Below are positions 993 through 53,793 of a stretch of 64,000 nucleotides of DNA, piece after piece. Origin of the DNA: Minisyncoccota bacterium (GTDB taxonomy: Bacteria; Patescibacteriota; Minisyncoccia; Phycocordibacterales; SW-6-46-9); the NCBI GenBank assembly GCA_040905385.1, contig JBBDRP010000002.1:322937-386936 (forward strand). Reading direction: 5' to 3'. A program made the position numbers and the translations under genes. Positions within the stretch are counted from its first letter, which is position 1. Every line of letters starts with the position of its first letter. The notes under the pieces are model-generated. The model ran no database searches, was not told the origin of the DNA, and saw only the letters and a list, made by a program, of their open reading frames with translations.

Positions 993-1268
993 TTTATTCT
1001 CGAGCAAAGTGCCGGCAGACAAATAGATAAATATCCGTTTAGCGGATTGAGAGCTAAAAAAATTTCGAGAGATGTACACAAGTTTGACTATCAAGCAAAG
1101 CGAGTAAAATAAACACTTGTATTTATTTTCGAGCGCCGCGCCGATAGACAAATGAATAATTACCCGCGATAGCGGGGAAGCGGTTATTGACTGCCAAACG
1201 GAGCGAGTAGAATGAACGCTTGCATTTATTCTCGAGCAAAGTGCCGGCAGACAAATAGATAATTTTTC
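992..1268. repeat. Three spaced direct repeats (~45-bp core TTATTCTCGAGC..GCCGGCAGACAAATAGATAA) at 992-1036, 1120-1165 and 1224-1268. Each is preceded by a related GAGCGAGTARAATRAAC-RCTTGYATTTA segment.
   Basis: Read directly from the sequence. Copies 1 and 3 are near-identical; copy 2 is diverged. Confidence 0.65.
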
Positions 1269-1649
1269 TTTTAGCTTTAGCCTAAAAGAAAAGGAATGAA
1301 GAGTTTTCAGCTCTTCATTAAAAGGGAGTCCTTTATTATCTATTTGACAACAAACACTCGTGCGTATACACTAACCCTTGTAAGTTGTGTAGCAACATTT
1401 TTTCATACGCGACGAGTTAGCTTCACAATTTCACATTACAATCAAAATGTTCGTCTATTGTCGCACCGGCTTAGCTGGTGCGAGTCTTGTGCATTTATGT
1501 GCAAAATAAATGTACGCTACACAAAAAGTTAACTCTTCTTTCTGTTTCTAGTCATTATTATATCGCAGACCATCGATTGACTACCAGCAAAGAAACCATT
1601 CTCCTTTCTTTCCGCTGCTTTATCGGCAATAAAATTACCTCACAATCCC

Positions 1650-10349: not shown

Positions 10350-11468
10350 ATGCCTCGATCAAAACCAAAAGAAGAAAATAGAGAGTTCGACCTCACTGAG
10401 GAAGAACGTCACGTGCAGGATAAGGTAAAAAACCTTACCTCTACCGGGCAGCAGCGTGGGTTTGTTACTCATGAACAGATACTTAAAAACTTTCCGTTCA
10501 TTGAGGATGACATTGACTTTCTTGAGGAGCTTTTAGATAAATTTGATAATGCCGACATCGACGTTCGCAAGGAGGCTGGTCTTTTTGATATTGAGGATAA
10601 CAGTGACAAGAATGTCTACCGACGTGGTAGTGCTGCTAGTTTTGATTCGGTGCAGCAGTACCTGAAGGAGATTGGAAAGTACAATCTGATTGATGCTCAG
10701 ATGGAGAAAGACCTGGCCAAGCGAATTCAGGCTGGTGATGATGAGGCAAAGAATATTCTGGCCCGAGCGAATCTGCGGCTGGTGGTATCGATTGCCAAAC
10801 GCTACGCCTCGCGTTCTTCTAATCTGTCGCTTCTGGATCTGATTCAGGAAGGGAACATCGGTCTCTTCAAGGCCGTAGATAAGTTTGACTGGACACGTGG
10901 TTTCAAGTTCTCGACGTACGCTACCTGGTGGATTCGCCAGGCAATCACGCGAGCCTTGGCAGATCAGTCACGGACAATTCGTATTCCGGTACACATGGTG
11001 GAGACCATCTCCAAGTACAAGCGCATTACGCGCCAGCTTAGTCAGGACTTGGGCCGGGATCCTCTTCCGGAGGAGATTGCGGTGGAGATGGGGATCGAGC
11101 TGGAGAAGGTGCTGCAGATTCAGAAGATTCGCCAGAATACCGTATCACTCGAGACACCGGTTGGTGACGAGGGTGATGACCGCTCCACATTCGGTGACTT
11201 TATTCCCGATGAGGAGCTGGATGATCCCGACAAGGAGACGTCACACCGCATTCTTTCCGAGCAGCTTGAGGAGGTGCTGAGTGAACTGACAGATAAAGAA
11301 CGACGTATTCTCGAGCTACGTAGTGGATTGATCGGTGGTGTCAGCCATACGCTGGAAGAGGTAGGGAAGGAGTTTGATGTCACCCGTGAACGTATTCGTC
11401 AGATTGAGGCCAAGGCGCACGAGAAGATTCGCCAGAATGAGAAGGCGCCGCGGCTTGAAAACTACTAA
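10350..11468 (+). CDS. rpoD: Primary RNA polymerase sigma factor (sigma-70 family)
   Basis: Region 2 ([39 protein letters not shown]) and region 4 HTH ([20 protein letters not shown]). Confidence 0.93.
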
Positions 11469-11491
11469 TAAGAATCTATTGCGTCTTTTAA

Positions 11492-11656
11492 GGTGCGTAC
11501 ATTCTTGCGCACTTGAGTGCTTCGGGAAAATGACCGTCTCCTCGACGGCCATTTTTGTGGTTGAACTATCTACAGCAGACAGTGATGTTCGTGCATTCGT
11601 GCCCACATGAGTGGTTGGATTAATTAATGTTTCGATAGATAAGAATCCGAGTTTAG
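11492..11656 (-). repeat. Copy A of intergenic repeat family R1 (inverted relative to copies B and C)
   Basis: The reverse complement contains GGATTCTTATCTATCGAAA..ATTAATTAATCCAAC and ..CAAGTGCGCAAGAATGTACGCA. Both are shared with 15850-16006 and, for the first, with 19590-19760. Confidence 0.6.
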
Positions 11657-11885
11657 AAAGTCGCTCAGCACTCCGCAAGTCGAAGCGCTGAGCTTATACT
11701 GACAGACCATGCCCGCTCGCCCTGTGAAGCCCGAACAAAACAGGGGTGCTCACTCGGTTGTTCATGTCTATACTTTAGTTTCGTTGATAAGTTTTTAGTA
11801 AGGAAGTACGTTATTTTAACAAAAGCGCAGATTAAATCATATATGGTTTATTTTGGCGATATATTGGGAAAATAGCATTTAGTAC

Positions 11886-11913
11886 TTGACAAATGTATAT
11901 TTAGCAGTACTAT
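11886..11913 (+). promoter_or_regulatory. Sigma-70-like promoter (TTGACA, 16-bp spacer, TACTAT) for the small gene at 11957
   Basis: Read directly from the sequence. Lies in an AT-rich segment. Confidence 0.45.
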
Positions 11914-11956
11914 ATATTCAGAAGTTGCGTTAATATCAAACAAAAAAGGGGTCACG

Positions 11957-12334
11957 ATGTCCAATCTAGATAAATGTCCAAATTGCGGTTGCGATTTGGA
12001 GGAAGAACAGAAGAAGATAGAGAAAAAAATCGATCAGATAATCGAAGAAGAACACGGGGAAGCATTAAAAGGACCGAGGAAAAGATCTAAGTCGATCACC
12101 TTTTTTTCTGGCCTTTTAGTAGGTCTCGTTTTAGGAGCTTTAATAGCTGGTTTACTTGTAGTTACATTGTTGAAGTTAGGTGTTAATAACGGTGCTATAC
12201 TTGGCTTTATCGGTATCTCAGTCAATGCATTGATTGCGTATAACTGTGGTATATATATTTCAAGTTCTGCCATACCAAAAGAAGAACGGTACTTACGAAA
12301 GAAGCTCAGAACCGAAATAGAAAATAAATTGTAA
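11957..12334 (+). CDS. Small hypothetical protein with an N-terminal CxxC zinc ribbon and two transmembrane helices. Low-GC gene.
   Basis: 125 aa (MSNLDKCPNCGCDL.., hydrophobic LLVGLVLGALIAGLLVV). Markedly more AT-rich than its neighbours. Has its own promoter and terminator. Confidence 0.55.
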   Translation: MSNLDKCPNCGCDLEEEQKKIEKKIDQIIEEEHGEALKGPRKRSKSITFFSGLLVGLVLGALIAGLLVVTLLKLGVNNGAILGFIGISVNALIAYNCGIYISSSAIPKEERYLRKKLRTEIENKL

Positions 12335-12340
12335 CCTAAT

Positions 12341-12371
12341 AAGACCAGGTTTTTGCAGTCTGGTCTTTTTT
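12341..12371 (+). terminator. Rho-independent terminator (AAGACCAG..CTGGTCTT plus T-run)
   Basis: 8-bp stem followed by TTTTTT. Confidence 0.6.
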
Positions 12372-12377
12372 AATACC

Positions 12378-12391
12378 TGCATACTGAAGCT
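12378..12391 (+). promoter_or_regulatory. Extended -10 element (TGtTATAAT) ending 14 nt before the ATG at 12406, which suggests a leaderless helicase mRNA
   Basis: Read directly from the sequence. There is no room for a Shine-Dalgarno sequence. Confidence 0.4.
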
Positions 12392-12405
12392 GTTATAATG
12401 GCGGT

Positions 12406-15400
12406 ATGGATAAAGCTCTCTCGGATGAATTCAAAAGCCGCTACGATAAACTTAACGACGCGCAGCGTGAGGCTGTTGATGCGGTGGAGGGACCGGTGCT
12501 GGTCGTGGCCGGGCCAGGGTCGGGAAAGACCGAGCTTCTGAGTGTGCGGGCGGCCAATATTCTGGACAAGACGGATGCCTACGCCTCGGACATTCTGTGT
12601 TTGACATTTACCGATGCGGCCGAGGTGAATATGCGTCGCCGCCTGACCGAGATTATCGGTGGGGAGGCAAACTACATTAAGGTGCATACCTTTCATAACT
12701 TCTGTCGGCGGGTGCGTGAGAATCATCCCGAGCACTTCGGCGTCACCACCGACTTTTCTGTGGCTGATGATATCGTTAAGACCGAGATACTCGAGGAGAT
12801 TTTTACGGATATGTCGCATGACAATCCGCTGCGTAGTGAACACCCGGAATTCGGTTTTGTCTTTCGTAAGCCGGTCCTGCGCGCCATTGGAGACATCAAA
12901 CAGGCCGGTCTCAGCCCGGATGAATTTGCTGCTGTCCTGAAGGCTAATGAACTTTTTCTGGATGCGGTCGCTGATGAGGTGCATGAGGTCTTTTCTCAGC
13001 GAGTTTCCAAGAGTATTTTTAAGGATGTCCGAAATCTTCTCCAGAGCTTCGAGGCCAAGCAGGATAAAAGTCCGGTGCCACATTTTCGCTCCTTGGCGTA
13101 TGCTATCAGCTCCAATCTGACACGGGCCCTGCAGGCGGCCGAGGAAGAGGATTCAACCAAGCCGATCACTGAGTTTAAAAAGCACTATCTGCGCAAGGAG
13201 GGTGGTCGCCACGTCTTGAAAGAGGAGCGAGACCGCGCGAAGATGCAGGGACTAGCGGATGTCTATGCGCAGTACGAAAAGCGCAACTACGATTTAGGTT
13301 TTTATGACTTCGATGACATGATTCTGGAGGTGATTCATAAGCTCGAGGAGGAGTCGGATCTTCGGGCCGAGGTTGCCGAGGCTAATGGGTACATCATGGT
13401 GGATGAGTTTCAGGACACCAATGATGCCCAGCTGCGTCTACTGCTGGCGCTGGCGCAGGAGGAACCGGATGACCGGCCGAACCTGATGGCAGTCGGTGAT
13501 GACGACCAGGCCATTTTTCGCTTTCAGGGTGCCGAAGTTTCTAATATTTTAAATTTCAAGCATACCTTTCCGGATACAAAAGTGATTACGCTGACAAAAA
13601 ATTACCGCTCACACCAACGGATTCTTGATACTGCTCAGGCAGTCATTGCTCAGGGTGCAGAGCGACTGCACACCATTATTGATGAGGTTGAGAAGAATCT
13701 GGAGGCGGCTGGAGAAATCAGTGCCGAGGTGTCGGTGGCGAAACGTGTGGTACCGACGCGTACGCATCACAATCACGCCATTGCACTACGAGTACAGGAG
13801 TTGATTGGCAGTGGAATTTCACCAGGAGAGATTGCTATTCTTGCCCGGCGGCATCAGGATCTGGAGGCACTTGTGCCGTATCTGCATGAGGTTGAGGTGC
13901 CGATAACCTACGAACGCCAGCAGAACGTTCTGGCACAGCCGCATATACGGCAGCTAATATCCATGTGTCGGCTGGTAACGCATCTCGGCGCGCAGGATAT
14001 CGAGCGAGCTGAGAGCTTCTTGCCCGAAGTGCTAACGTACCCCTTCTGGGGGCTGGATCGCAGCGTTGTTTGGAAGGTATCACTGGAGACACGCCGAGCT
14101 GGCAGCAGCTGGCTTGAGGCGATGCGCGAGCGTGGTGGTAGACTAGCCGGAATCGCTGACTTTTTTATTGCGCTTTCGGGGCGGGCTACGCATGAGCCGG
14201 TCGAGTATATTCTGGATTCACTGGTCGGTGCGCATGAGCTGCCAGCTGCTGATTCTGGCCAGGCTGATGAACTGGATTTTCCGGATGCCGACGAGACACT
14301 GCTGGTAAGTCCATTCAAGGACTTCTACTTCTCTCGCGATAAGCTGGCTGATGATCCGGCCGAGTATCTGCGCTTTCTGTCCAGTCTTAAGACCTTTGTA
14401 TTTGCACTGCGTGAGCACAAGGAAGGCACGATTCTGACAACAACCGATCTGGTTTCATTTGTAGATACCCATGAGGATAATGACCTCGTGGTTACTGATA
14501 CCAGTCCGTTTGTGAATGCCACCGATGCCGTGCATCTCATGAGCGCCCACAAATCTAAGGGGCAGGAGTTTGGTGCTGTGATTATTGCCGGGGCAGTAGA
14601 TGACATCTGGGCTAATACGACCAACCGTTCAAAGTTGAGCTTTCCGGCCAATCTACCAATACAGTTTGCCGGCGATACGACCGATGATCAGCTACGTCTG
14701 CTTTTTGTGGCTATGACGCGAGCCAAGCACACGCTGGATATCTTCTCCTTTGCGGTGGATGACAATGGTTCTGAGCAGGTGGACCTATCTTTTCTTGGTA
14801 ATGCCGAGATTGACCGTCATGAGGTTGGTGATGAGCTGCCGTCAACCGAGTCACTTCTGGAGTCGACGGTGCCGATTTATCACGGCGGTCCGTACCTGCC
14901 GGACGAGAAGGCGATTCTGTCGCCACTGGTTGAGGACTACCGGCTGAGTGTGACCCATTTAAATAACTTTCTGGATGTTCGCTACGGTGGACCAGAGAAT
15001 TTCTTGACCTCTAATTTGCTACGCTTTCCGCAGCCGATGAGTAAGCATCAGGTCTACGGATCAGCTATTCACACCGCTCTCGAACGTGTATATGTATACC
15101 TTGCCCAGCAGGATAAGCCGCCAACGCTGGAGCTAATTTTAGAATGGTTTGAAAATCAGATCATACGTAGCCGGCTGCCGGAGAAGGATCGTACGTACCT
15201 GTTGGAGCGAGGAAAAGACGCCTTAGAGAATTTCTGGCAGGAGAAGGAGGGTGAGTTCAAGCCCAATCATATTAGTGAGTACAACTTCCGTCCGGAGAAT
15301 GTTGTGGTAAATGGTGTGCCATTGGCGGGAAAGATCGACAAAATGGTACCGGATGGAGATGTGATGACGGTACATGACTTTAAGACTGGGACGGCCTTCA

Positions 15401-15720
15401 ATCGCTTTACCGCCTCTAGCGTGAAGGCAGAGAATTACAAGCGGCAGCTTATTTTTTATAAACTACTGGTTGAACACGCTGCACCGTTTAAGGATATGCA
15501 TGTTAGCCAAGGAGTGCTGGAGTTTGTGGAGCCAAAGGATAATGAGATTGTAACGCTTCCGTATGAAATTACCCAGGAAGATGTAGACGAGCTTACGGAG
15601 CTTATCTCTGTGGTGCATGATCATATCGTGAATCTGAATTTCCCGGATACGGCTGGCTACAAGCAGACCGCCAAAGGCGTACGGAAATTTCAGGAGGATC
15701 TACTTGCGGGCGATGTGTAG
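12406..15720 (+). CDS. UvrD/PcrA-type SF1 DNA helicase fused to a C-terminal RecB-family (PD-D/ExK) nuclease domain. AddA-like helicase-nuclease.
   Basis: Walker A AGPGSGKT, DEFQDT, VGDDDQAIFRFQGA and TKNYRS helicase motifs. C-terminal nuclease motifs GSAIHTALE, GKIDKM, HDFKTG and YKRQLIFY. No Cas4-type Cys cluster. Confidence 0.85.
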   Translation: MDKALSDEFKSRYDKLNDAQREAVDAVEGPVLVVAGPGSGKTELLSVRAANILDKTDAYASDILCLTFTDAAEVNMRRRLTEIIGGEANYIKVHTFHNFCRRVRENHPEHFGVTTDFSVADDIVKTEILEEIFTDMSHDNPLRSEHPEFGFVFRKPVLRAIGDIKQAGLSPDEFAAVLKANELFLDAVADEVHEVFSQRVSKSIFKDVRNLLQSFEAKQDKSPVPHFRSLAYAISSNLTRALQAAEEEDSTKPITEFKKHYLRKEGGRHVLKEERDRAKMQGLADVYAQYEKRNYDLGFYDFDDMILEVIHKLEEESDLRAEVAEANGYIMVDEFQDTNDAQLRLLLALAQEEPDDRPNLMAVGDDDQAIFRFQGAEVSNILNFKHTFPDTKVITLTKNYRSHQRILDTAQAVIAQGAERLHTIIDEVEKNLEAAGEISAEVSVAKRVVPTRTHHNHAIALRVQELIGSGISPGEIAILARRHQDLEALVPYLHEVEVPITYERQQNVLAQPHIRQLISMCRLVTHLGAQDIERAESFLPEVLTYPFWGLDRSVVWKVSLETRRAGSSWLEAMRERGGRLAGIADFFIALSGRATHEPVEYILDSLVGAHELPAADSGQADELDFPDADETLLVSPFKDFYFSRDKLADDPAEYLRFLSSLKTFVFALREHKEGTILTTTDLVSFVDTHEDNDLVVTDTSPFVNATDAVHLMSAHKSKGQEFGAVIIAGAVDDIWANTTNRSKLSFPANLPIQFAGDTTDDQLRLLFVAMTRAKHTLDIFSFAVDDNGSEQVDLSFLGNAEIDRHEVGDELPSTESLLESTVPIYHGGPYLPDEKAILSPLVEDYRLSVTHLNNFLDVRYGGPENFLTSNLLRFPQPMSKHQVYGSAIHTALERVYVYLAQQDKPPTLELILEWFENQIIRSRLPEKDRTYLLERGKDALENFWQEKEGEFKPNHISEYNFRPENVVVNGVPLAGKIDKMVPDGDVMTVHDFKTGTAFNRFTASSVKAENYKRQLIFYKLLVEHAAPFKDMHVSQGVLEFVEPKDNEIVTLPYEITQEDVDELTELISVVHDHIVNLNFPDTAGYKQTAKGVRKFQEDLLAGDV

Positions 15721-15750
15721 AAGATCTGCAAGTCTTCTTCAATAACAAAA

Positions 15751-15773
15751 AACACCACGTCTAACGTGGTGTT
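15751..15773 (+). terminator. Terminator hairpin AACACCACG-tctaa-CGTGGTGTT. Member of a conserved hairpin family.
   Basis: 9-bp perfect stem immediately after the helicase stop. A weaker second hairpin lies at 15818-15832. Confidence 0.5.
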
Positions 15774-15849
15774 TCGCTTCTTAGATATTGGTTTCAAACG
15801 GTTAGATAAGCTCATTGCCACGTCAGACGTGGTGCTGAGCGGCTTTCTT

Positions 15850-16006
15850 GGTTTAGGATTCTTATCTATCGAAAAACCAGGAAGTCAAAGCACTTGAATG
15901 AGCACCCGATATCTCTTGCTGCTTAGCAGAAAGAGAACGGTTGTGCGAATTTATGTCCGGAAATTACATGTAATTTCCCTGGACCAAGTGCGCAAGAATA
16001 TACGCA
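15850..16006 (+). repeat. Copy B of repeat family R1, including the 20-bp perfect palindrome GGAAATTACATGTAATTTCC at 15959-15978
   Basis: A 46-bp segment (15945-15990) is identical to 19707-19752. The 5' part matches copies A, C and D. Confidence 0.7.
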
Positions 16007-16030
16007 GATCACTTCCCGCAATAGATCGGC

Positions 16031-16810
16031 TTACTGCTGGCTTTCAAACACAGCATCAGCGTAGTCCCAGAAGGCTTCGTTGCCTTCGATATCGGCAATG
16101 CACTCAGAGGCCTGTGCGTAGCGTGGTGCCTGTGGGTGAAGCTGTGGAATCGGGAACTGGCGGTATACCCAGGCCACCTGATTCTCATCGTAACTTTCAA
16201 TAATACTCTTCATTGTCAGGTGGAACTGACCACAGAATGGGCAAAGGAAGTCAGAGTACTCGACAACGATGATTTCGGCATCAAGACTGCCACGGATGTG
16301 GTCATCCTCATCTACAGGATTGATGGCAATATCATCTGAGTTCGGTGTCTCGGATCCTTCTGAAGAGGCATCCGCCTGAATGATATCAATTATCTGTGTC
16401 ATGGCAGGAAATGGAATAGCACCACTAATGGAGACACGCTTTCCGTCCTGGCTAATGGAGAGAAGGTCAGGACTGTTGATGAGATCAATGATTTCGGTTT
16501 GAGAGCTTTCGGTTAGTGGGTCGTTGATAACCAGTACGTTGAAGGGTGTTCCACCACCTCCAGCCTGGGCGGCATCATTTACATCCTCCTCAACATCAGA
16601 CTGAAAATCAGTTGATTCGATACAGCTACGGAATGCGTCACTGTCGACACCAGCCACCTCGGCAGCGGCGATGACGCCATCATTGCTGGTAGCAGTGCTG
16701 TTTTCTGAACCACTACTGTTACCAAAGAAAATTCCGGCGGCAATCAGAAGCCCGGCAAAAACAACGGCTCCGGCGATAATCAATGTATTACTATTTGTTG
16801 ATGTACTCAT
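16031..16810 (-). CDS. DsbA-family thiol:disulfide oxidoreductase (thioredoxin fold, CPFC active site) with an N-terminal membrane anchor/signal
   Basis: SDFLCPFCGQFH motif. Hydrophobic N-terminus. Confidence 0.75.
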   Translation of the reverse strand: MSTSTNSNTLIIAGAVVFAGLLIAAGIFFGNSSGSENSTATSNDGVIAAAEVAGVDSDAFRSCIESTDFQSDVEEDVNDAAQAGGGGTPFNVLVINDPLTESSQTEIIDLINSPDLLSISQDGKRVSISGAIPFPAMTQIIDIIQADASSEGSETPNSDDIAINPVDEDDHIRGSLDAEIIVVEYSDFLCPFCGQFHLTMKSIIESYDENQVAWVYRQFPIPQLHPQAPRYAQASECIADIEGNEAFWDYADAVFESQQ

Positions 16811-16862
16811 ACGTTATAATAGGCAAACTAATAATTGTCTTTCACCTACGTATCATAACAGA

Positions 16863-17486
16863 ATGAACCAATCTACGCACAATGATGACTGCCGAATAAA
16901 GAACGCACGTTTCGTGAAGGGTATTCGTGGTGAGGATTTGATTCTACAGGAGTCGGTACCACAGATTGTTTTTGCTGGTCGTTCTAATGTCGGCAAGTCT
17001 AGCACTCTAAATAAGCTCCTTGGTCAGAAGATTGCCCGCATCAGTAGCACACCCGGAAAAACGCAGGAGATAAACTTCTTCTCGATCGAGGGCGGTACGG
17101 CGTATGTTGTTGACCTGCCGGGTTATGGTTACGCCAAGATGAATGGGAAGCAGGCAGAAAGTATGCGCAAGCAGATGATCTGGTACCTAGGCTCATCAAA
17201 GGCACCGATTGCGCTGCTGTGTCTGGTGATTGACATTCGCCGCGGGTTGGGAGGTCTGGACCGTGATCTGCTGGACATCGCCTCTGGAGAAGCCATCCCG
17301 GTACTGATTGTTGCCAATAAAGTTGATAAGTGTAACCAGAAGGAGCGAACAGCAGCGGAACGGAAGCTGGAGGCTGATCTCGAGTCGCATCCAGGTATTA
17401 TTCAGGGCGTTATTGCCTTCTCAGCAGAGACCGGACGAGGTCGCAATACATTATGCGAGGTAATACAATCAATCTATGCCGTTTGA
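16863..17486 (+). CDS. engB: Ribosome-biogenesis GTP-binding protein EngB/YihA
   Basis: G1 motif GRSNVGKSS plus VVDLPGYGYAK. The start is moved to the ATG at 16863 because the track ORF (from 16671) overlaps dsbA. Confidence 0.8.
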   Translation: MNQSTHNDDCRIKNARFVKGIRGEDLILQESVPQIVFAGRSNVGKSSTLNKLLGQKIARISSTPGKTQEINFFSIEGGTAYVVDLPGYGYAKMNGKQAESMRKQMIWYLGSSKAPIALLCLVIDIRRGLGGLDRDLLDIASGEAIPVLIVANKVDKCNQKERTAAERKLEADLESHPGIIQGVIAFSAETGRGRNTLCEVIQSIYAV

Positions 17487-18270
17487 TATAGCAATAATTT
17501 TGGGAATACTGCAGGGAATTACCGAGTTTATCCCGGTATCATCCTCAGGTCATCTTATTCTGGGTCGAGAATTGTTCTCGGTTTCCAATGCTGGTGGTCT
17601 CGCCTTCGATGCGGTGATTCACCTGGCGACAGCCCTGGCGATTGTGGTGTACTTTCGCCGGGATATCTATCGGTTTGTTCGTGGAAAGGGAAGTCTGATT
17701 GCCGGCACAAACATTACGCTGTATAAAAAAACCGTTTTAATTATCATTGTCGCGACCATTCCGGCAGCAGTACTGGGCTTGTCGCTGGAGTCGATTATCG
17801 AAACGGTGTTTCGCAATACCGAGGTAGTGGCCGTTGGTCTGGTGATCGGTTCACTGTTAATTTTGGCGGCTGAGCATATTCCAGCTCCGGGCAACAAGAA
17901 GATCACATTGCGTCGGGGTCTGGTGATTGGGTTGTTTCAGTGTCTGGCACTGCTTCCGGGAATGAGTCGATCCGGGGCGACCATTTCTGGTGGGCTCTTT
18001 TCTGGTTTTAGTCGGGAGACGGCCACGAGCTTCTCCTTTCTTTTAGGGCTACCAATATTTATCGGGGCTGGTGGTGTGCAGCTATTTGAGCTACTCCGCG
18101 CGGAGGGTGCTGCAGCCATTGATGTACCATTGATTCTGGGCTTTGCAGCTGCCTTCGTGGCTGGGTTGGCAGCTATGCACTTCCTTATGCGATTTGTGCG
18201 CAGTCACCGACTGGACTGGTTCGCTGCCTATCGTATTTTGCTAGCGGTGGCGGTACTTCTTTTCCTCTAG
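17476..18270 (+). CDS. uppP: Undecaprenyl-diphosphatase (BacA/UppP)
   Basis: GITEFIPVSSSGHL signature. Multi-pass membrane protein. Confidence 0.85.
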   Translation: MPFDIAIILGILQGITEFIPVSSSGHLILGRELFSVSNAGGLAFDAVIHLATALAIVVYFRRDIYRFVRGKGSLIAGTNITLYKKTVLIIIVATIPAAVLGLSLESIIETVFRNTEVVAVGLVIGSLLILAAEHIPAPGNKKITLRRGLVIGLFQCLALLPGMSRSGATISGGLFSGFSRETATSFSFLLGLPIFIGAGGVQLFELLRAEGAAAIDVPLILGFAAAFVAGLAAMHFLMRFVRSHRLDWFAAYRILLAVAVLLFL

Positions 18271-18698
18271 TTGTCCTCTGGACTCATGGATACGGCAATC
18301 AGGTAGTAAACAATGCCGGCAGCAAGCAGTAATCCTAGTGGCAGAATTGTACACCAGACCTCGGCCATGATGGCGATCAACATCCAGAGAATCGAGCCTC
18401 CGATGTAGAACTGCACACTACCGCGTCTGATCTCGTCTCTGGTCATGGTTTCGTGCTGTCGCTGTGGATGCCAGATTTCATGGAAGATGTACATCGTCAC
18501 CAGCATCAGGATAACGATGGCCAGGCAGGTAAAGGAGAGGTTGGCGCCACCTACGGCTGCCAGCAGGTTCTCGGTTGGTGGGGTTGGTTCTCCACCAAGA
18601 ATTGCCGCGCCATTTTCATCATAGGTCACTGCCTGAGTAATAATTGGCAGTGCCAGCGAAGTGAGACTAGCTAGGATTGTTGTGTATGACTTTTTCAT
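18267..18698 (-). CDS. Hypothetical membrane protein (signal peptide plus about three transmembrane segments)
   Basis: 143 aa. Hydrophobic segments. No recognised domain. Confidence 0.5.
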   Translation of the reverse strand: MKKSYTTILASLTSLALPIITQAVTYDENGAAILGGEPTPPTENLLAAVGGANLSFTCLAIVILMLVTMYIFHEIWHPQRQHETMTRDEIRRGSVQFYIGGSILWMLIAIMAEVWCTILPLGLLLAAGIVYYLIAVSMSPEDN

Positions 18699-18737
18699 GT
18701 TTTTTATTATACCAAGGATTCGCTCTTACTACTGTTT

Positions 18738-18827
18738 TGCTACGCACGAGTAAACGCCACAGGCGTTTCTCTCTGCTCGCACTGCTTCGCGGGCTGCACA
18801 AGGCTAGGCAAAACAGTAGTACTCGCT
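18738..18827. other. Structured element: 14-bp perfect inverted repeat (TACTACTGTTTTGC / GCAAAACAGTAGTA) enclosing ~55 nt with an internal hairpin AAACGCC-aca-GGCGTTT
   Basis: Read directly from the sequence. Lies in a divergent intergenic region. Confidence 0.4.
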
Positions 18828-18883
18828 ATAAGGTAAATCTTCTCGTATCTAAAAGAACTGGATAGGGTGGGAGTGAATTTATT

Positions 18884-18911
18884 TTGACAATACATATCAG
18901 AATTGTATACT
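18884..18911 (+). promoter_or_regulatory. Sigma-70-like promoter (TTGACA, 16-bp spacer, TATACT) for the gene at 18951
   Basis: Read directly from the sequence. Confidence 0.45.
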
Positions 18912-18950
18912 AATAAACGAACGTAATCTTAATAAAAGAAAGGAGCAAAT

Positions 18951-19451
18951 ATGGGTGGTGGAACTGGAGCTATATACAGCAAAGGTAAAAATCTTTTTAC
19001 CGAAGCACAGGCAAAAATTAATAAATGGATAGAAGATCAGTCAAAAAACTGGCCGATAAAAGATAAAATCGAAGGGGTGCAATATGGTGATATTACAAAC
19101 TTATATACCCCAAATCAGCTTTCGGATGCGCTGGTTGCTGAAGTGACTCAGTATGTACCGAATAGATATCCCGGCCACGGAGTAACCACAAACCTTGATG
19201 GACATTTCGTTCTTACGTACTGGTTGGTAGATATGGAGTCTAAAAGTGCAGAAAAACTTAGTGTTAAGTGCTGGATTTATGCTGGTTTGGATTACAAAGA
19301 ATCTGGTCTAGAGTTTGAGGGCGAGTTGCTGCGGTATGACACTAGAGTTACTGGTGTTGAATTTATACACACAACTAACGGAGCTCTGGAAAAGCTTCGA
19401 TTTGAGTTGAGGCCTCGTAAAGAGGGCTTCAATTCTGAAATCAATTTGTAA
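18951..19451 (+). CDS. Hypothetical protein, low-GC gene
   Basis: 166 aa. No recognised motifs. AT-rich relative to its surroundings. Has its own promoter and terminator. Confidence 0.55.
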   Translation: MGGGTGAIYSKGKNLFTEAQAKINKWIEDQSKNWPIKDKIEGVQYGDITNLYTPNQLSDALVAEVTQYVPNRYPGHGVTTNLDGHFVLTYWLVDMESKSAEKLSVKCWIYAGLDYKESGLEFEGELLRYDTRVTGVEFIHTTNGALEKLRFELRPRKEGFNSEINL

Positions 19452-19454
19452 AAT

Positions 19455-19488
19455 TATAATGAAAACCTGGCTTACAAAAGCCGGGTTT
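19455..19488 (+). terminator. Rho-independent terminator (CCTGGCTT-acaa-AAGCCGGG plus TTTTTTT)
   Basis: Read directly from the sequence. A second hairpin GGCTGCAAT-tta-ATTGCAGCC follows at 19498-19520. Confidence 0.6.
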
Positions 19489-19589
19489 TTTTATTAAGGC
19501 TGCAATTTATTGCAGCCGCTATTAAAGCGAACTTACCTCTACTCACTCTACTCAGCTACTTCTTGAAAATAATTACATAGCAGTTCTGT

Positions 19590-19760
19590 GGGTACCAGTC
19601 GGCTTATCGAGGTTTAAATACTTATCTATCGAAGTATTAATTAGTCCAACGACTTGAATGAGGGCTGGAAAACTTTTATCTGCTAAGCAGGTAAAAGTAC
19701 CATTGCCCGAATTTATGTCCGGAAATTACATGTAATTTCCCTGGACCAAGTGCACACGTC
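19590..19760 (+). repeat. Copy C of repeat family R1, including the palindrome GGAAATTACATGTAATTTCC at 19721-19740
   Basis: Shares CTTATCTATCGAA..ATTAATTAGTCCAAC..CTTGAATGAG and the 46-bp identical core with copy B. Confidence 0.7.
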
Positions 19761-19892
19761 AGAAAAAGCTTTGCGTTCCGACTAGCGGAATGCAAAGCGG
19801 CTTTCTGAGGCTAGAAACGTATCTCGCAAAATATGTTAATCAACACCTTCGACTCAAGTCAGATACAAGACTGGTGCCCTTGAGGAAAGGGT

Positions 19893-19970
19893 GCCAGTCG
19901 GCTTCCAAAAGTATAAACTTCTTATCTAGCGAAATATTAACTTGTCCAACGACTCAAGTCGGCACAAATA
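19893..19970 (+). repeat. Partial copy D of repeat family R1 (CTTATCTAGCGAAATATTAACTTGTCCAACGACTCAAGTCGGCAC)
   Basis: Matches the 5' part of copy C, including the CCAGTCGGCTT prefix. Confidence 0.55.
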
Positions 19971-19998
19971 TACATATATTATTTTTTGTAGTAGACCC

Positions 19999-20574
19999 TT
20001 AAAACGGCATCGAATGCGTCATACCATTACTTTCTGGACGCTCCCACCCGCTGGTGTCGATAGGTATTTCGCGTGTCTGTTTGCCCTGCGTGTACTTGAG
20101 ATGTCCGTGCTCGATGGCGTAGTCATAAATTCGCTTCGTAACCCGCACATCCTGAATACAGTACTCGCGAATTTTGTCGATCTCGCCATTTTTCCACCAG
20201 GTAATTGCCTGGAGACCGTGTCCGGACTTTTTTTCGCCAAGCGTGGCCTGGGCTACATCATCAAGCTTGATCCGTCGACCAAGACTGTCCTGAATTGATT
20301 TCATAATATCAACACTCTTTATCTGCGTGAGGTCCCCAGGGTAGTACTTGTTGAGGAGAGGAATATCAAAATGCTCGGAGTTGTAGCCAATCAGGCTGCC
20401 GGCGGACTCAAGAATCGGCCACAGCTTGGGAAAGTCTTCCTGTAAAAAAGAGATGTACTCATCCGTTTTGGAGTCATGAATAGCCAGGAGCGAAATATCA
20501 AGATCGACCGCCTCACGCGAGCCGACGTCTCGGAAGGTGTTTTTTGTTTCGATATCAAATACAATCTTGCGCAT
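19999..20574 (-). CDS. DEDD-family (DnaQ-like, RNase H fold) 3'-5' exonuclease, standalone
   Basis: Exo I FDIET, Exo II YNSEHFDIPLL, Exo III YCIQD. 191 aa. Confidence 0.65.
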   Translation of the reverse strand: MRKIVFDIETKNTFRDVGSREAVDLDISLLAIHDSKTDEYISFLQEDFPKLWPILESAGSLIGYNSEHFDIPLLNKYYPGDLTQIKSVDIMKSIQDSLGRRIKLDDVAQATLGEKKSGHGLQAITWWKNGEIDKIREYCIQDVRVTKRIYDYAIEHGHLKYTQGKQTREIPIDTSGWERPESNGMTHSMPF

Positions 20575-30820: not shown

Positions 30821-30826
30821 CAAAAA

Positions 30827-30857
30827 ACCACCACGTCCGACGTGGTGGTTTTATTTA
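30827..30857. terminator. Bidirectional terminator ACCACCACG-tccga-CGTGGTGGT flanked by an A-run and a T-run. Conserved hairpin family.
   Basis: Lies between convergent genes. Confidence 0.6.
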
Positions 30858-32670: not shown

Positions 32671-32694
32671 ATTTTTCTACATCTAAAGAAGGAA

Positions 32695-32720
32695 AACACC
32701 ACGTCAGGCGTGGTGTTTTT
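32695..32720 (+). terminator. Terminator AACACCACG-tcagg-CGTGGTGTT plus TTTTT. Conserved hairpin family.
   Basis: Read directly from the sequence. Confidence 0.6.
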
Positions 32721-44951: not shown

Positions 44952-46211
44952 ATGCATATGCGGCAATCACAGCTTTTCTCTAAAACCAGAAAGAACGCAC
45001 CAGCTGATGAGGTGGCCAAGAATGCCCAGCTTCTGATTCAGGCTGGCTTTATTCACAAGGAGATGGCCGGTGTTTATGCGTATCTACCACTTGGTCTGCG
45101 GGTCCGTAATAAAATTGAGGAAATAATTCGTGAGGAGATGAATGCTGTCGGCGGTCAGGAGGTGGAGCTCACCGCCCTTCAGCGGGAGGAGCTCTGGCAG
45201 CGCACGGATCGCTGGAGTGATGAGTCAATCGATGTCTGGTTCAAGACCAAGCTGAAGAATGATACCGAGGTCGGTCTGGCTACGACCCATGAGGAGCCGC
45301 TTACCGAGCTTTTGACCCAGCATATCAACTCCTACCGAGATATGCCGCTAGCCGTCTATCAGTTCCAGACCAAGTTTCGCAATGAGCTACGCTCGAAAAG
45401 CGGCATCATGCGTGGCCGGGAATTTCTTATGAAGGATCTGTACTCTTTTTGTCGTACACAGGATGAGCATGATGATTTTTATGCTGAAATGAAGTCTGCC
45501 TACGAACGGGTCTTCAGGCGCGTTGGAATTGGTGAAGACACTTTTTATACCTACGCCGATGGTGGAAGCTTCTCTGATTACTCTCATGAGTTTCAGACGG
45601 TCTCTGATGCCGGTGAGGATACAATCTATATCGATGATGACAGCGGAATCGCTATTAATAAAGAGATGCTGAACGAGAGTACGCTGAAGGAGCTTGATGT
45701 TGAAAGGGAGGATCTGCGTGAGGCTCGTGCTATCGAGGTGGGAAATATCTTTCCGCTGGGGACGAAGTTTTCCGATGCTCTGGGATTGGTGTTTAAGAAC
45801 GAAGACGGTGAGGAAAAGCCGGTGATTATGGGATCCTATGGTATCGGCGTCGGACGACTAATGGGAACGATTGTTGAGATTATGGCTGCTGAAGATGGTT
45901 TTATCTGGCCAGAGAACATTGCACCGTTTCGGGTACATCTCCTGGCACTCGGTGGTAGTGATGATGTCCGCCAGGCAGCTGATGGGGCCTACGAAGCCTT
46001 GCAATCTTCCGGTATCGAGGTTCTGTATGATGACCGCGACGCGAGTCCGGGCGAGAAATTTGGCGATAGTGATCTGATTGGTATTCCGACACAGATCGTT
46101 ATCGGAAATCAGACGATTAACAAGGATGGGGTCGAGGTGACGAATCGATTAGATAAAGACAGTACTTCAGAAATTTTACCCCTTTCGGAGGTCATAAACA
46201 GTCTTTCCTAA
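44952..46211 (+). CDS. proS: Prolyl-tRNA synthetase, bacterial-type N-terminus, short form apparently lacking the INS editing domain
   Basis: N-terminal MRQSQLFSKTRK..AGFIHK..YAYLPLGLRV matches bacterial ProRS. Only 419 aa. Confidence 0.8.
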   Translation: MHMRQSQLFSKTRKNAPADEVAKNAQLLIQAGFIHKEMAGVYAYLPLGLRVRNKIEEIIREEMNAVGGQEVELTALQREELWQRTDRWSDESIDVWFKTKLKNDTEVGLATTHEEPLTELLTQHINSYRDMPLAVYQFQTKFRNELRSKSGIMRGREFLMKDLYSFCRTQDEHDDFYAEMKSAYERVFRRVGIGEDTFYTYADGGSFSDYSHEFQTVSDAGEDTIYIDDDSGIAINKEMLNESTLKELDVEREDLREARAIEVGNIFPLGTKFSDALGLVFKNEDGEEKPVIMGSYGIGVGRLMGTIVEIMAAEDGFIWPENIAPFRVHLLALGGSDDVRQAADGAYEALQSSGIEVLYDDRDASPGEKFGDSDLIGIPTQIVIGNQTINKDGVEVTNRLDKDSTSEILPLSEVINSLS

Positions 46212-51991: not shown

Positions 51992-52242
51992 TTGTCGTTT
52001 TCTGTCGCAACGATGTCTATTACTAAAAGACATTACTTTAAGACATCATTCTTGTCTTTAAGAAGTCGTTTAGTATGTCGCAAGCGGCTTTAAGCGGTCT
52101 ATTAAGAGACAATTAAATATGTCGTTTATAAAAGCCCTCAACATAGGGCTATTTTATTTGACACCCTATGCCAGGAGAGTATTATTTGCCCACACCAAGA
52201 GCGGTAATAATTATACATATTCTACACGTAATAAATAACGAC

Positions 52243-53793
52243 ATGAAAGACTCAAGCAAAACATTTAATCTGACACTCGCGGCATTTTTATTTCCAATTT
52301 TTGTCCTCGGAATTATCTTGACCGGAATTTTTGTTGTTGACCAATCAATTTTGGCACAGGCATCAACCGAAATGGATTCTGAGATTGATGAATCTTATTT
52401 CGTGGATGATGACACCACACTGGCTCAGTCGGGTGGTCTTCTCCAGCCACGCAATTCTTCAGACGAAGAGGAAGCAACCTCATCAAAGGATTCCTCTGAG
52501 CTTGCTTCTTGTAATGACGTCTATATAGAGGATGATTTACGAATTGATTTTGATAACGACGAAGAGTCAGTGCTGAAGCTTCAGTCTTTCCTGAAAACGT
52601 ACGAAGGCTACAATTACGTTGAGCTAAATGGAGACTTTGATGAAGATACATTGCAAGCTGTGCAGGCGTTTCAGACTCGGTACGCCGAAGATATTCTGGA
52701 GCCGTGGGGATACCAGCCAGATGAAGCTACAGGTTATGTATACATAACTACCAAGCAGAAGATTAACGAAATTCACTGTGATGAGCGTTTCAGCCTTACA
52801 CAAGCGCAGCAGCAGGAGATTCGTGAGTTCCGTGAGCTTGTAAACCAGCTTCGATCTGAGGGATACAGCTTTGAAACTCCCAACTACCTGACCCAGTACT
52901 ATGCAGACATGAATGGATCAGTACCGGAATTTGATGACGAAGTCCCTTCTGAGGAGCAAAGCGACGACAGCGGGGATGAAACGGCTACCACCACAGCCTC
53001 AACAACCGAGGAAGATGAATCAACTACCGATGACCGTAACTTCTTCCAGCGTCTATTTGGATTTGGTGATGACTCATCTGAAACCGAAGAGGAAGCAACA
53101 TCAACCGCAACAACCACAGACGATTCAGATGAAGACGAGGATACAACTACCGCTACTACATCTGCCACAACATCAGAAGGGAATACTGATGACCGTAACT
53201 TCTTCCAGCGACTGTTTGGGATCGGTGGAGATACTGACAACAATGAGGCTACAACAACCGACGAAGGGGAGTCATTGGATGATGACGAAGTCCCGTCTGA
53301 GGAGCAAAGCGACGACAGCGGGGATGAAGTAGCCAATGAAGACGAGGACGAAACTGATGAAAGTGCTACTACATCTGCAACAGGTACCGCTGCTACCTCG
53401 GCCGCAACGACCAGCTCTCTTGGTGATGTAGCTGCTGGTGTTTACAACGGAGTAAACAGTATATTTAACTTCCTGCTATCTCCGACATTTCTGTTAATTG
53501 TGCTGGTAATTTTGATTCTTCTACTTGTGGCTACAATTATCGAGAGTGGTGATGATGAAGCTGAGGACGACGATACAGATATGGATCCATGGGCCGAGTA
53601 TGACGAAACCCAGTCGGTTGAGGAGGAAGGTGAGGTTGAGTCATCGGAAGATGACGAAATCCCGTCTGCTGAGGAGCAAAGCGACGACAGCGGGGAGGAT
53701 GTTCCAACTCCGCCTGAGGATGATGACAATATCAGTCTTGATGAGCTTGAGGCTGACGATGATGAGGACGAGGATGTGTTCACACGTAACTAG
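52243..53793 (+). CDS. Acidic repeat protein with N- and C-terminal TM helices and a PG_binding_1-like peptidoglycan-binding domain
   Basis: LKLQSFLKTYEGYNYVELNGDFDEDTLQAVQAFQTRY resembles PG_binding_1. The DE[VI]PS[EA]EEQSDDSG block occurs three times and TDDRNFFQRLFG[FI]G twice, with near-identical underlying DNA. Start taken at the Met preceding the TM helix. Confidence 0.6.
   Translation: MKDSSKTFNLTLAAFLFPIFVLGIILTGIFVVDQSILAQASTEMDSEIDESYFVDDDTTLAQSGGLLQPRNSSDEEEATSSKDSSELASCNDVYIEDDLRIDFDNDEESVLKLQSFLKTYEGYNYVELNGDFDEDTLQAVQAFQTRYAEDILEPWGYQPDEATGYVYITTKQKINEIHCDERFSLTQAQQQEIREFRELVNQLRSEGYSFETPNYLTQYYADMNGSVPEFDDEVPSEEQSDDSGDETATTTASTTEEDESTTDDRNFFQRLFGFGDDSSETEEEATSTATTTDDSDEDEDTTTATTSATTSEGNTDDRNFFQRLFGIGGDTDNNEATTTDEGESLDDDEVPSEEQSDDSGDEVANEDEDETDESATTSATGTAATSAATTSSLGDVAAGVYNGVNSIFNFLLSPTFLLIVLVILILLLVATIIESGDDEAEDDDTDMDPWAEYDETQSVEEEGEVESSEDDEIPSAEEQSDDSGEDVPTPPEDDDNISLDELEADDDEDEDVFTRN

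Follow-up and report, generated by a model that had tools for sequence, protein, structure and literature searches.

What kind of repeat can multiply between the housekeeping genes of a bacterium with a tiny, tightly packed genome, and in which form does it act? The question is raised by a 64,000-nucleotide stretch of a Minisyncoccota bacterium (GenBank assembly GCA_040905385.1, contig JBBDRP010000002.1, positions 322,937 to 386,936 of the forward strand), referred to here as the window. Genomes of this size and density are the rule in the Candidate Phyla Radiation (CPR), or Patescibacteria, in which, to our knowledge, hardly any non-coding RNAs or repeat elements have been described. A preliminary description of the window had pointed to four copies of an intergenic repeat with a 46-bp core holding a 20-bp perfect palindrome, and had offered as explanations a mobile repeat like the miniature inverted-repeat transposable elements (MITEs), a multicopy small RNA (sRNA), or the site of a dimeric DNA-binding protein under selection. 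The analysis presented here favours, on balance, a lineage-specific, modular, non-coding repeat family whose units form single-stranded structures, most probably of RNA, on one strand and multiply by local duplication or insertion.

A profile built from three long copies and run with nhmmer over the window matched at 11472-11692 (-, copy A), 15811-16028 (+, copy B), 19578-19787 (+, copy C), 19774-19843 (+, copy E) and 19889-19979 (+, copy D) and nowhere else in the 64 kb, which gives five repeat units at three sites (11.47-11.79, 15.81-16.03 and 19.58-20.00 kb). That the family is real is also evident from exact words. There are exactly two instances of the 46-mer CGAATTTATGTCCGGAAATTACATGTAATTTCCCTGGACCAAGTGC, 15946-15991 in B and 19708-19753 in C, each on the + strand, as against 0 matches in 100 shuffles; the 20-bp perfect palindrome lies inside it, at 15959-15978 in B and 19721-19740 in C; and CTTATCTAKCGAA, expected 0.23 times, is present four times, once on the - strand (11631-11643) and three times on the + strand (15861, 19621 and 19921). 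On these points, and on the four sites that it named, the preliminary description was right. Its count fell one short, the profile search having added E, and its copy extents were too narrow: a covarying hairpin precedes the left ends it had given, and homology at the A locus reaches about 11791. Nor are core and palindrome a property of all copies, as had been supposed; copy A lacks the module that holds the palindrome and has the terminator hairpin of rpoD (11527-11556) there instead.

In what follows, "forward" denotes the + strand of the window for B, C, E and D and its - strand for A. Syntenic contigs of relatives were retrieved via DsbA homologues (loci numbered with the prefix L; L049 is a contig of a metagenome-assembled genome from a relative with 61% DsbA identity), and genomes and metagenomes were scanned with the pattern CTTATCTAKCGAA-N10-RTCMAA. 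These scans gave 34 loci, of which only L005 and L034 were genuine; two viral scans returned chance matches only.

Read along the forward strand, the basic unit of about 100-170 nt consists of four parts in the order T, P, H, Q. T is a hairpin of 11-16 bp with a 5-nt loop and one near-invariant G.U pair. P, the most conserved segment and apparently unpaired, is a single-stranded stretch of the form GGCUUUCU-N10-CUUAUCUAUCGAA-N10-GUCCAAC, whose second half comes in four variants. H is a 4-bp hairpin with a UCAA loop (GCAC-UCAA-GUGC, CGAC-UCAA-GUCG, CCAC-UCAA-GUGG or CGGC-UCAA-GCCG), and Q is a tail of about 40 nt ending in (A/G)UAGAU. An inverted repeat of 6-9 bp is formed by the P core, TTATCTAT, with the Q end, ATAGATAA. 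Nearly every copy has the same centre, TATCT/AGATA, and a putative RNA helix of P with Q can be judged from copy E alone, where the change is compensated (GTATCT/AGATAC). Complete units are followed, after the tail, by a forward terminator of the form AAAA-hairpin-UUUU (A, L046, L047, L048 and L051). In arrays the next T begins within about 10 nt of the preceding tail, and the last unit usually carries no terminator hairpin and reaches to the converging gene.

The elements end close to genes. In the window the gap between the last unit and the converging stop codon is 2-4 nt (rpoD, the DsbA-like gene and the exonuclease gene): 2 nt separate the end of unit D from the stop codon of the RNase_H_2/exonuclease gene (19999-20001), and the tail Q1 of copy A stops 2 nt short of the second stop of the tandem TAA TAA of rpoD, with a layout of H, Q1 and stop that is also seen in L046, L047 and L048. 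These two in-frame stops close rpoD at 11463-11471. In our reading of the relatives, the gap is 1-5 nt at rpoD (L042, L046, L047, L048), at the exonuclease gene (L042, L046), at the helicase gene (L049), at the M23 peptidase and helicase genes (L034) and at a sugar transferase gene (L005). The C-termini of the proteins that end at the elements are unaltered. Exceptions to the abutment are both elements of L051, one of which lies between a co-directional gene and its terminator; in the rpoC-dnaG spacer of L049 it is a truncated module, not a Q tail, that reaches the rpoC stop codon.

The 46-bp core turns out to belong to a separable module that sits inside a hairpin loop of the larger repeat, a feature that the preliminary description had not seen. 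In B, C, L034 and L042 the H loop is split between U and C (GCACU^CAAGUGC) by a module of 90-92 nt, without duplication; a precise empty site at B or C would read GCACTCAAGTGC. The module is laid out as (U)GAAUGA - P2 - GAAUUUAU - GUCC - P3 - CUGGAC, and its insertion turns H into the stem that closes a three-way junction. The hairpin P2 is long and irregular, with an outer helix UGAAU/AUUUA (in L034 the second strand reads AUUCA, so that the G.U becomes G-C), followed inwards by tandem G.A, helices of 4 and 3 bp with a UU bulge between them, then an internal loop and, at the far end, a hairpin. The stem of P3 is the palindrome (15959-15978 within GUCC...GGAC in copy B), and the 46-mer is made up of the 3' strand of the P2 outer helix, P3 and the 3' half of H. 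The junction nucleotides (UGAAUGA, CGAAUUUAUGUC, GGAC) are conserved, and the helices are variable and covary. Outside arrays, most modules are preceded by T (B, C, L042, two L049 copies and L051), that of L034 by C, and the fixed word extends no further than this base. That the module is separable from the basic unit follows from L049, where it is present without P: the helicase/DsbA spacer of this contig holds two modules between the DsbA terminator and a half-H plus Q1 beside the helicase stop codon, and its rpoC-dnaG spacer holds three, head-to-tail and antisense to the operon, the last of them cut off at the rpoC stop codon. L051 has one further module copy.

The preliminary description had proposed to look for covariation among aligned copies, and the helices of the module, of T and of H all covary. 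For the module, individual minimum free energy (MFE) folds give one common architecture in every copy, and RNAalifold predicts 31 pairs, 15 of them compensated; 93% of the cells are paired and 16 of the 31 pairs are changed on both sides, a result equalled by 0 of 500 shuffles, with slid controls only 28-47% paired. In T and H compensation is seen at 11 of the 15 pairs, and 9 of 9 sequences have G.U at one position of T; across 17 model-aligned units 94% of the cells are paired, 12 of the 15 pairs are compensated and the G.U is kept in 11 of 12, figures that lean towards structure because the alignment was fitted to the model. MFE folds of whole units agree on T, H and the module only.

These structures favour one strand. 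The module has 24 G.U against 8 A.C cells on the forward strand (p = 0.007); the T and terminator hairpins have 1-3 forward-strand G.U pairs in 15 of 15 cases and none on the reverse strand; and the forward fold of these hairpins is the more stable in every case, by 2-10 kcal/mol. Selection has therefore acted on the hairpins of a single strand, whether in RNA or in single-stranded DNA, and not on a DNA duplex, which removes the operator reading of the palindrome. Most probably the elements act as single-stranded structures, with RNA the likeliest form, on one defined strand.

Comparison with the relatives speaks for gain and loss. The helicase/DsbA spacer measures 310 bp in the window vs 57-83 bp in L042, L046, L047 and L048, and by alignment copy B is one block of about 225 bp (15811-16026) inserted a few bases from the DsbA stop codon and absent from these four; in L049 this spacer has received an insertion independently and in reverse orientation. 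At the 3' end of the exonuclease gene L042 has a single unit, orthologous to D; D is ancestral and C and E are additions in the lineage of the window. Every relative with a DsbA identity of 61-63% or more has units at the 3' end of rpoD, in varying number and content, and L042, L046, L047 and L048 keep the unit downstream of rpoD in its position. The family is absent from the contigs of L172-174 (54-55% DsbA identity), and its range is one narrow clade within Candidatus Paceibacterota (CPR). Module subtypes are common to different genomes at non-orthologous sites: the P2 domain of copy C is 92% identical to one L049 module and 72% to copy B, and copy B is 81.5% identical to L034, for comparison with nucleotide identities between window and L049 of 79% in rpoD and 66% in dsbA. 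The evidence for recent gain and loss between relatives is strong, as it is for strand-specific structure. A Logan contig (L001, 3760 bp, with the window genes of 16.0-19.7 kb) starts and ends inside the 46-bp core of B and C; since it ends within the identical core, the repeat breaks short-read assemblies, which is a practical consequence of the finding.

Table 1. Features of the repeat family in the window. Bit scores are from two models, R1 and R2.
Feature	Position	Strand	Parts	Match or remark
Copy A, 3' end	11474..11520	-	H (GCAC-UCAA-GUGC) 11509-11520; tail Q1 11474-11508	
Hairpin "term"	11527..11556	both	AAAAAUGGCCGUCGAGGAGACGGUCAUUUU	stem covariation; kept in L046, L047, L048
Copy A, complete short unit	11566..11693	-	T 11663-11693; GACUUUCU; P 11614-11643; H' 11603-11614; Q2 11566-11602	R2, 11599-11692, 84.9 bits
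A locus, upstream extension	11705..11791	-	degenerate P CTTATCAACGAAA 11779-11791; 53-nt segment 11705-11757	
Copy B, 5' part	15810..15894	+	T 15810-15840; GGCUUUCU; P 15861-15890; 5' half of H (GCACU)	R2, 15811-15905
Copy B, two-hairpin module (90 nt)	15895..15984	+	P2; 1-nt linker; P3	R1, 97.8 bits; fold; covariation
Copy B, 3' part	15985..16026	+	3' half of H; Q1	ends 4 nt from the stop codon of the DsbA-like gene (16031-16033)
Copy C, 5' part	19586..19654	+	weak T; GGCUUAUC; P 19621-19650; 5' half of H	R2, 19585-19653, 25.8 bits
Copy C, two-hairpin module (92 nt)	19655..19746	+	palindrome 19721-19740	R1, 111.4 bits
Copy C, 3' half of H, then short unit E	19747..19870	+	E: T 19770-19796; P 19818-19844; H 19851-19860; tail ending CAGATACAAG	R2, 19769-19866, 85.9 bits
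Short unit D	19871..19996	+	T 19871-19897; P 19921-19950; H 19950-19961; Q 19962-19996	R2, 19870-19965, 82.2 bits

The idea of a MITE-like mobile repeat is borne out as far as mobility is concerned, by the insertion of B, the additional units C and E, the independent insertions in L049, all of them presence/absence polymorphisms at orthologous sites, and the module subtypes at non-orthologous sites. The family does not look like a classical MITE. MITEs have terminal inverted repeats of roughly 10-30 bp, and here there is only the 6-9-bp pair TTATCTAT/ATAGATAA, which lies inside the unit because T and GGCTTTCT outside it are also conserved. A clear target-site duplication, for which the preliminary description had suggested searching, was not found either: the module is inserted without duplication, and the TAGAT on both sides of block B is also the conserved unit end elsewhere.

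Altogether, the evidence is best accommodated by a non-autonomous, duplicative repeat whose units would act as structured RNA on the forward strand and which would spread by local duplication or insertion and not by vertical inheritance alone. Complete units could be small transcription units or 3' untranslated region (UTR) appendages closed by intrinsic terminators, and the arrays would occupy the space between converging genes. The most economical function would be one at transcript ends, i.e., bidirectional termination, insulation or protection from 3' exonucleases. REP/BIME and BOX elements are held to persist as tolerated or co-opted selfish DNA, and by analogy the same might apply to this family. 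The preliminary description had placed all copies in convergent spacers, which holds for B and for the C-E-D array; A lies in the co-directional spacer between rpoD and the open reading frame (ORF) at 11957. There the hairpin "term" serves on the + strand as the rpoD terminator and on the - (forward) strand as the terminator-like 3' end of the short unit of A.

Several points weigh against this interpretation. A sigma-70 scan found no forward-strand promoter at any copy, so to speak the missing half of the earlier sRNA proposal, of which the structural part stood (helices that covary, G.U pairs specific to one strand, and forward terminators behind the complete units). In two places, the A locus and the rpoC-dnaG spacer of L049, the one evident direction of transcription leaves the forward strand antisense, and only where an L051 element sits between a co-directional gene and its terminator can it be taken as certain that the folding strand is transcribed. 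All five units fall within 8.5 kb, with none in the remaining 55 kb of the window. The sequences behind the covariation number 8-17 and are related, coming from a few genomes; some were picked by eye and some were aligned to the model. The G.U of "term" on the forward strand is an A.C mismatch on the strand on which it terminates rpoD, the terminator or insulator role of the arrays is pure inference, and a G.T-tolerant hairpin of single-stranded DNA would produce an identical strand bias.

The last point leads to the main rival, by which the units are mobile elements of single-stranded DNA (REP/REPIN- or PATE-like), moved by a trans-acting HUH/Y1 or other enzyme encoded elsewhere, with hairpins selected for transposition. 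This is a possibility of some weight, albeit one to which we give clearly less credence, and it accounts no less well than the RNA reading for insertion into the loop, for the arrays and for antisense copies. Exact insertion of the module into the H loop (GCACT^CAAGTGC) without duplication, head-to-tail arrays, insertion polymorphism between relatives, module subtypes common to different genomes, strand-specific folding, antisense copies within an operon spacer where no promoter was found, and the inverted repeats of P core and Q end, compensated in E, would all fit such an element. Set against this are the proteins: no transposase was seen among the 20 window proteins scanned, and no Y1 transposase, RAYT, TnpA, TnpB, recombinase or reverse transcriptase among these proteins or in the Pfam tables of the relatives' contigs. 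Copy orientation is mixed and not uniform relative to GC skew (A on -, B-E on +); abundant G.U pairs, a tandem G.A and helices expanded by branches are features more of RNA than of DNA; and a hairpin with a U-run closes the complete units. A related and rather speculative proposal concerns the module only, which may be a new class of structured RNA that is itself mobile, a three-way-junction element with near-invariant junction nucleotides and a tandem G.A, landing precisely in the GCACU^CAAGUGC loop with no duplication of the target and arraying head-to-tail.

It is unlikely that the units are paralogous genes of trans-acting sRNAs, with T as 5' stem-loop, P as seed, H as second hairpin and a terminator, the copy downstream of rpoD being ancestral and B, C and E recent duplicates. 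Such genes would explain why the unit at rpoD keeps its position in four relatives, why P is the most conserved segment while apparently unpaired, and why forward terminators follow complete units, and would agree with the enrichment of the P-core complement ATAGATAA (8 occurrences of ATAGATAA/TTATCTAT in the window vs about 2 expected, 6 of them intergenic, one in rpoB and one, at 61936, in the gene at the window end). They would need promoters, however, of which the sigma-70 scan found none and for which the 10 nt or so between a tail and the next T leave no space; most arrays end in a unit that has no terminator and runs into the converging gene, and gain, loss and loop insertion are unusual for genes of this kind. 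Still more doubtful is a new small self-cleaving or catalytic RNA, with tandem arrays processed to monomers. The conserved junction nucleotides amid variable, covarying helices and the head-to-tail arrays suit such an RNA, and AUGAG...CGAA, as we read it, looks superficially like the hammerhead core with its tandem G.A. No ribozyme model matched the 261-nt query at E <= 10; the G.A pairs lie inside P2, five pairs from the junction, whereas the hammerhead has its core (CUGANGA / GAAA / UH) at a three-helix junction; and the hammerhead nucleotides C3, U4 and G5 are not conserved, the core positions reading GGAAUGAG in the L049 arrays and UAAGUGAG in L051. Highly improbable, lastly, is the operator of a dimeric DNA-binding protein, with selection on the site as the cause of the identity of B and C. 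A perfect 20-bp palindrome that is identical in B, C and L034 would be in keeping with it. At the same position, however, L049 and L051 have unrelated, pairing-preserving sequences (GAAAAUCAUAUAUGAUUUUUC; UGACAAAUGCUUGUGUUUGUCA), very different yet paired, with P3 in one copy of this group branched by additional helices; L042 differs from the window by a compensatory G-C to A-T double change and by an asymmetric A to G change that turns an A-T pair into a G.T wobble; and B and C both lie at convergent 3' ends, where no promoter was found to regulate.

Known families gave no match. In Rfam 15 no model reached its gathering threshold in the window, and nothing relevant appeared at E <= 10 in 11300-20200, 15780-16040 or the L049 array, nor at E <= 5 on the whole of L049; the ribozyme models (hammerhead, twister, pistol, hatchet, HDV-like) had no match at E <= 10. 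There is no tRNA or tmRNA near the copies, and literature searches retrieved no report of such elements in CPR bacteria. Hairpin-forming intergenic repeats are as a kind already known, and this family is apparently undescribed. Its architecture is not a known one, especially the separable three-way-junction module in a hairpin loop and the near-invariant G.U in T.

The closest likenesses are partial. REPs, palindromes of 20-40 nt headed by GTAG, number in the hundreds, frequently alternate in orientation and go together with a RAYT gene. Like REP, BIME and REPIN sequences, the present elements are extragenic, located mostly at 3' ends or between converging genes, hairpin-forming, mosaic, clustered, lineage-specific and subject to gain and loss; unlike REP/BIME, they have units of 100-260 nt with several different hairpins and a near-invariant G.U, form head-to-tail arrays, and no RAYT was seen. 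The REP-like form was rejected on account of these unlike hairpins and arrays and of a GTAG restricted to some of the Q ends. The BOX elements of Streptococcus pneumoniae (boxA-boxB(n)-boxC) share the modular build with an optional, repeatable middle, the length of 100-300 nt, the stable predicted RNA and the intergenic, non-autonomous character, and differ in that boxA and boxC are long complementary terminal repeats present in more than 100 copies, whereas here the inverted repeat has 6-9 bp and the module lies inside a hairpin loop. The palindrome-associated elements (PATEs) derived from IS200/IS605 are comparable in their strand-specific hairpins, the absence of terminal inverted repeats and, as at the module insertion here, of a target-site duplication. 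PATEs insert 3' of one fixed tetra- or pentanucleotide, and the module is preceded by T or C with no longer word in common; unlike them, the family has no TnpA/TnpB that was found, the two hairpins of the module are dissimilar, and orientation is not tied to one replication strand. With the sRNAs LhrC1-5 of Listeria and Qrr1-5 of Vibrio the units have in common paralogous copies, some in tandem, a conserved single strand between hairpins and terminator-like ends; those sRNAs have their own promoters and stable positions, in contrast to the copies here, which come and go and at which no promoters were found.

Other candidates were tried and discarded. GTCCAAC in P fits the RYYYAAC of integron attC sites, with no GTTRRRY partner at the other end and housekeeping genes in between. 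The hammerhead was rejected on the grounds given above, and a K-turn would require a 3-nt bulge adjoining the G.A pairs, which is lacking. P has no boxes of the TTGACA/TATAAT type that characterize the sigma-70 promoters of this genome (11886, 18884) and is not such a promoter. A short ORF in the module (AUG UCC GGA AAU UAC AUG UAA) was dismissed because P3 varies by compensatory changes. Q1 bears a resemblance (GTGCGCA..AATGTA..TTAAA), in some copies only, to the dif site of Escherichia coli; as a dif/Xer-like site it was set aside, since several copies in both orientations would be unstable. TTCTTATCT may resemble the nick region of pC194-type plasmids.

With regard to the setting, the genes run in the order rpoB, rpoC, dnaG, rpoD, a small ORF, a UvrD/PDDEXK helicase gene, the DsbA-like gene (16031-16810), EngB, UppP, two small ORFs, the RNase_H_2-type exonuclease gene, HisRS, TruB and then the ATP synthase genes. 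The DsbA-like protein shows 100% identity to one encoded on a 784-kb contig of a Candidatus Paceibacterota metagenome-assembled genome. The 53-nt segment upstream of copy A (CCGAGTGAGCACCCCTGTTTTGTTCGGGCTTCACAGGGCGAGCGGGCATGGTC) is kept in L049 (6830-6960, +), where it opens a stretch of about 150 nt that is closed by a long-range helix, CUCCUGUUUUGUUCGG / CCGAAACAAAAUAGGGAG, and abuts the rpoD stop codon; neither the segment nor its counterpart matched Rfam. Three bidirectional terminator hairpins (15749-15774, 30825-30850 and 32693-32718) form a near-identical family of the type AAAACACCACGTC-N3-GACGTGGTGTTT, and L046 and L048 have kept the first of them, which follows the helicase gene. Upstream of rpoB there are three copies of a 51-nt repeat (TTTATTCTCGAGCAAAGTGCCGGCAGACAAATAGATAA...), at 993-1275 (+) and 1330-1350, each between small hairpins; they carry AATAGATAA, a motif common to the tail ends of the repeat units, and one ATAGATAA/TTATCTAT copy stands directly 5' of the TTGACA box upstream of rpoB. 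These repeats may be distant relatives of the family or may share with it a word recognized by a protein or an RNA. Elsewhere in the window, a tRNA-Pro(cgg) called by ARAGORN at 45177-45258 (+), inside a class II aminoacyl-tRNA synthetase gene (44952-46211), is probably a false positive, the Rfam tRNA model being silent there, and a 541-aa ORF with a peptidoglycan-binding domain (52168-53793) contains acidic repeats of 49 and 44 nt (D1, D11) at 52932-53700 (+).

A repeat that multiplies in a streamlined genome, mostly abutting stop codons, that folds on one strand with strong covariation and has no match in Rfam is unusual. It would be either a rare selfish element that has survived extreme streamlining or a lineage-specific RNA device that ends or insulates transcripts at converging genes. 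Should the module itself prove to be a mobile new class of RNA, this would imply that CPR bacteria have an unknown mechanism of insertion at the level of RNA or single-stranded DNA, or else that the module is a small ribozyme or a protein-binding RNA of a new type.

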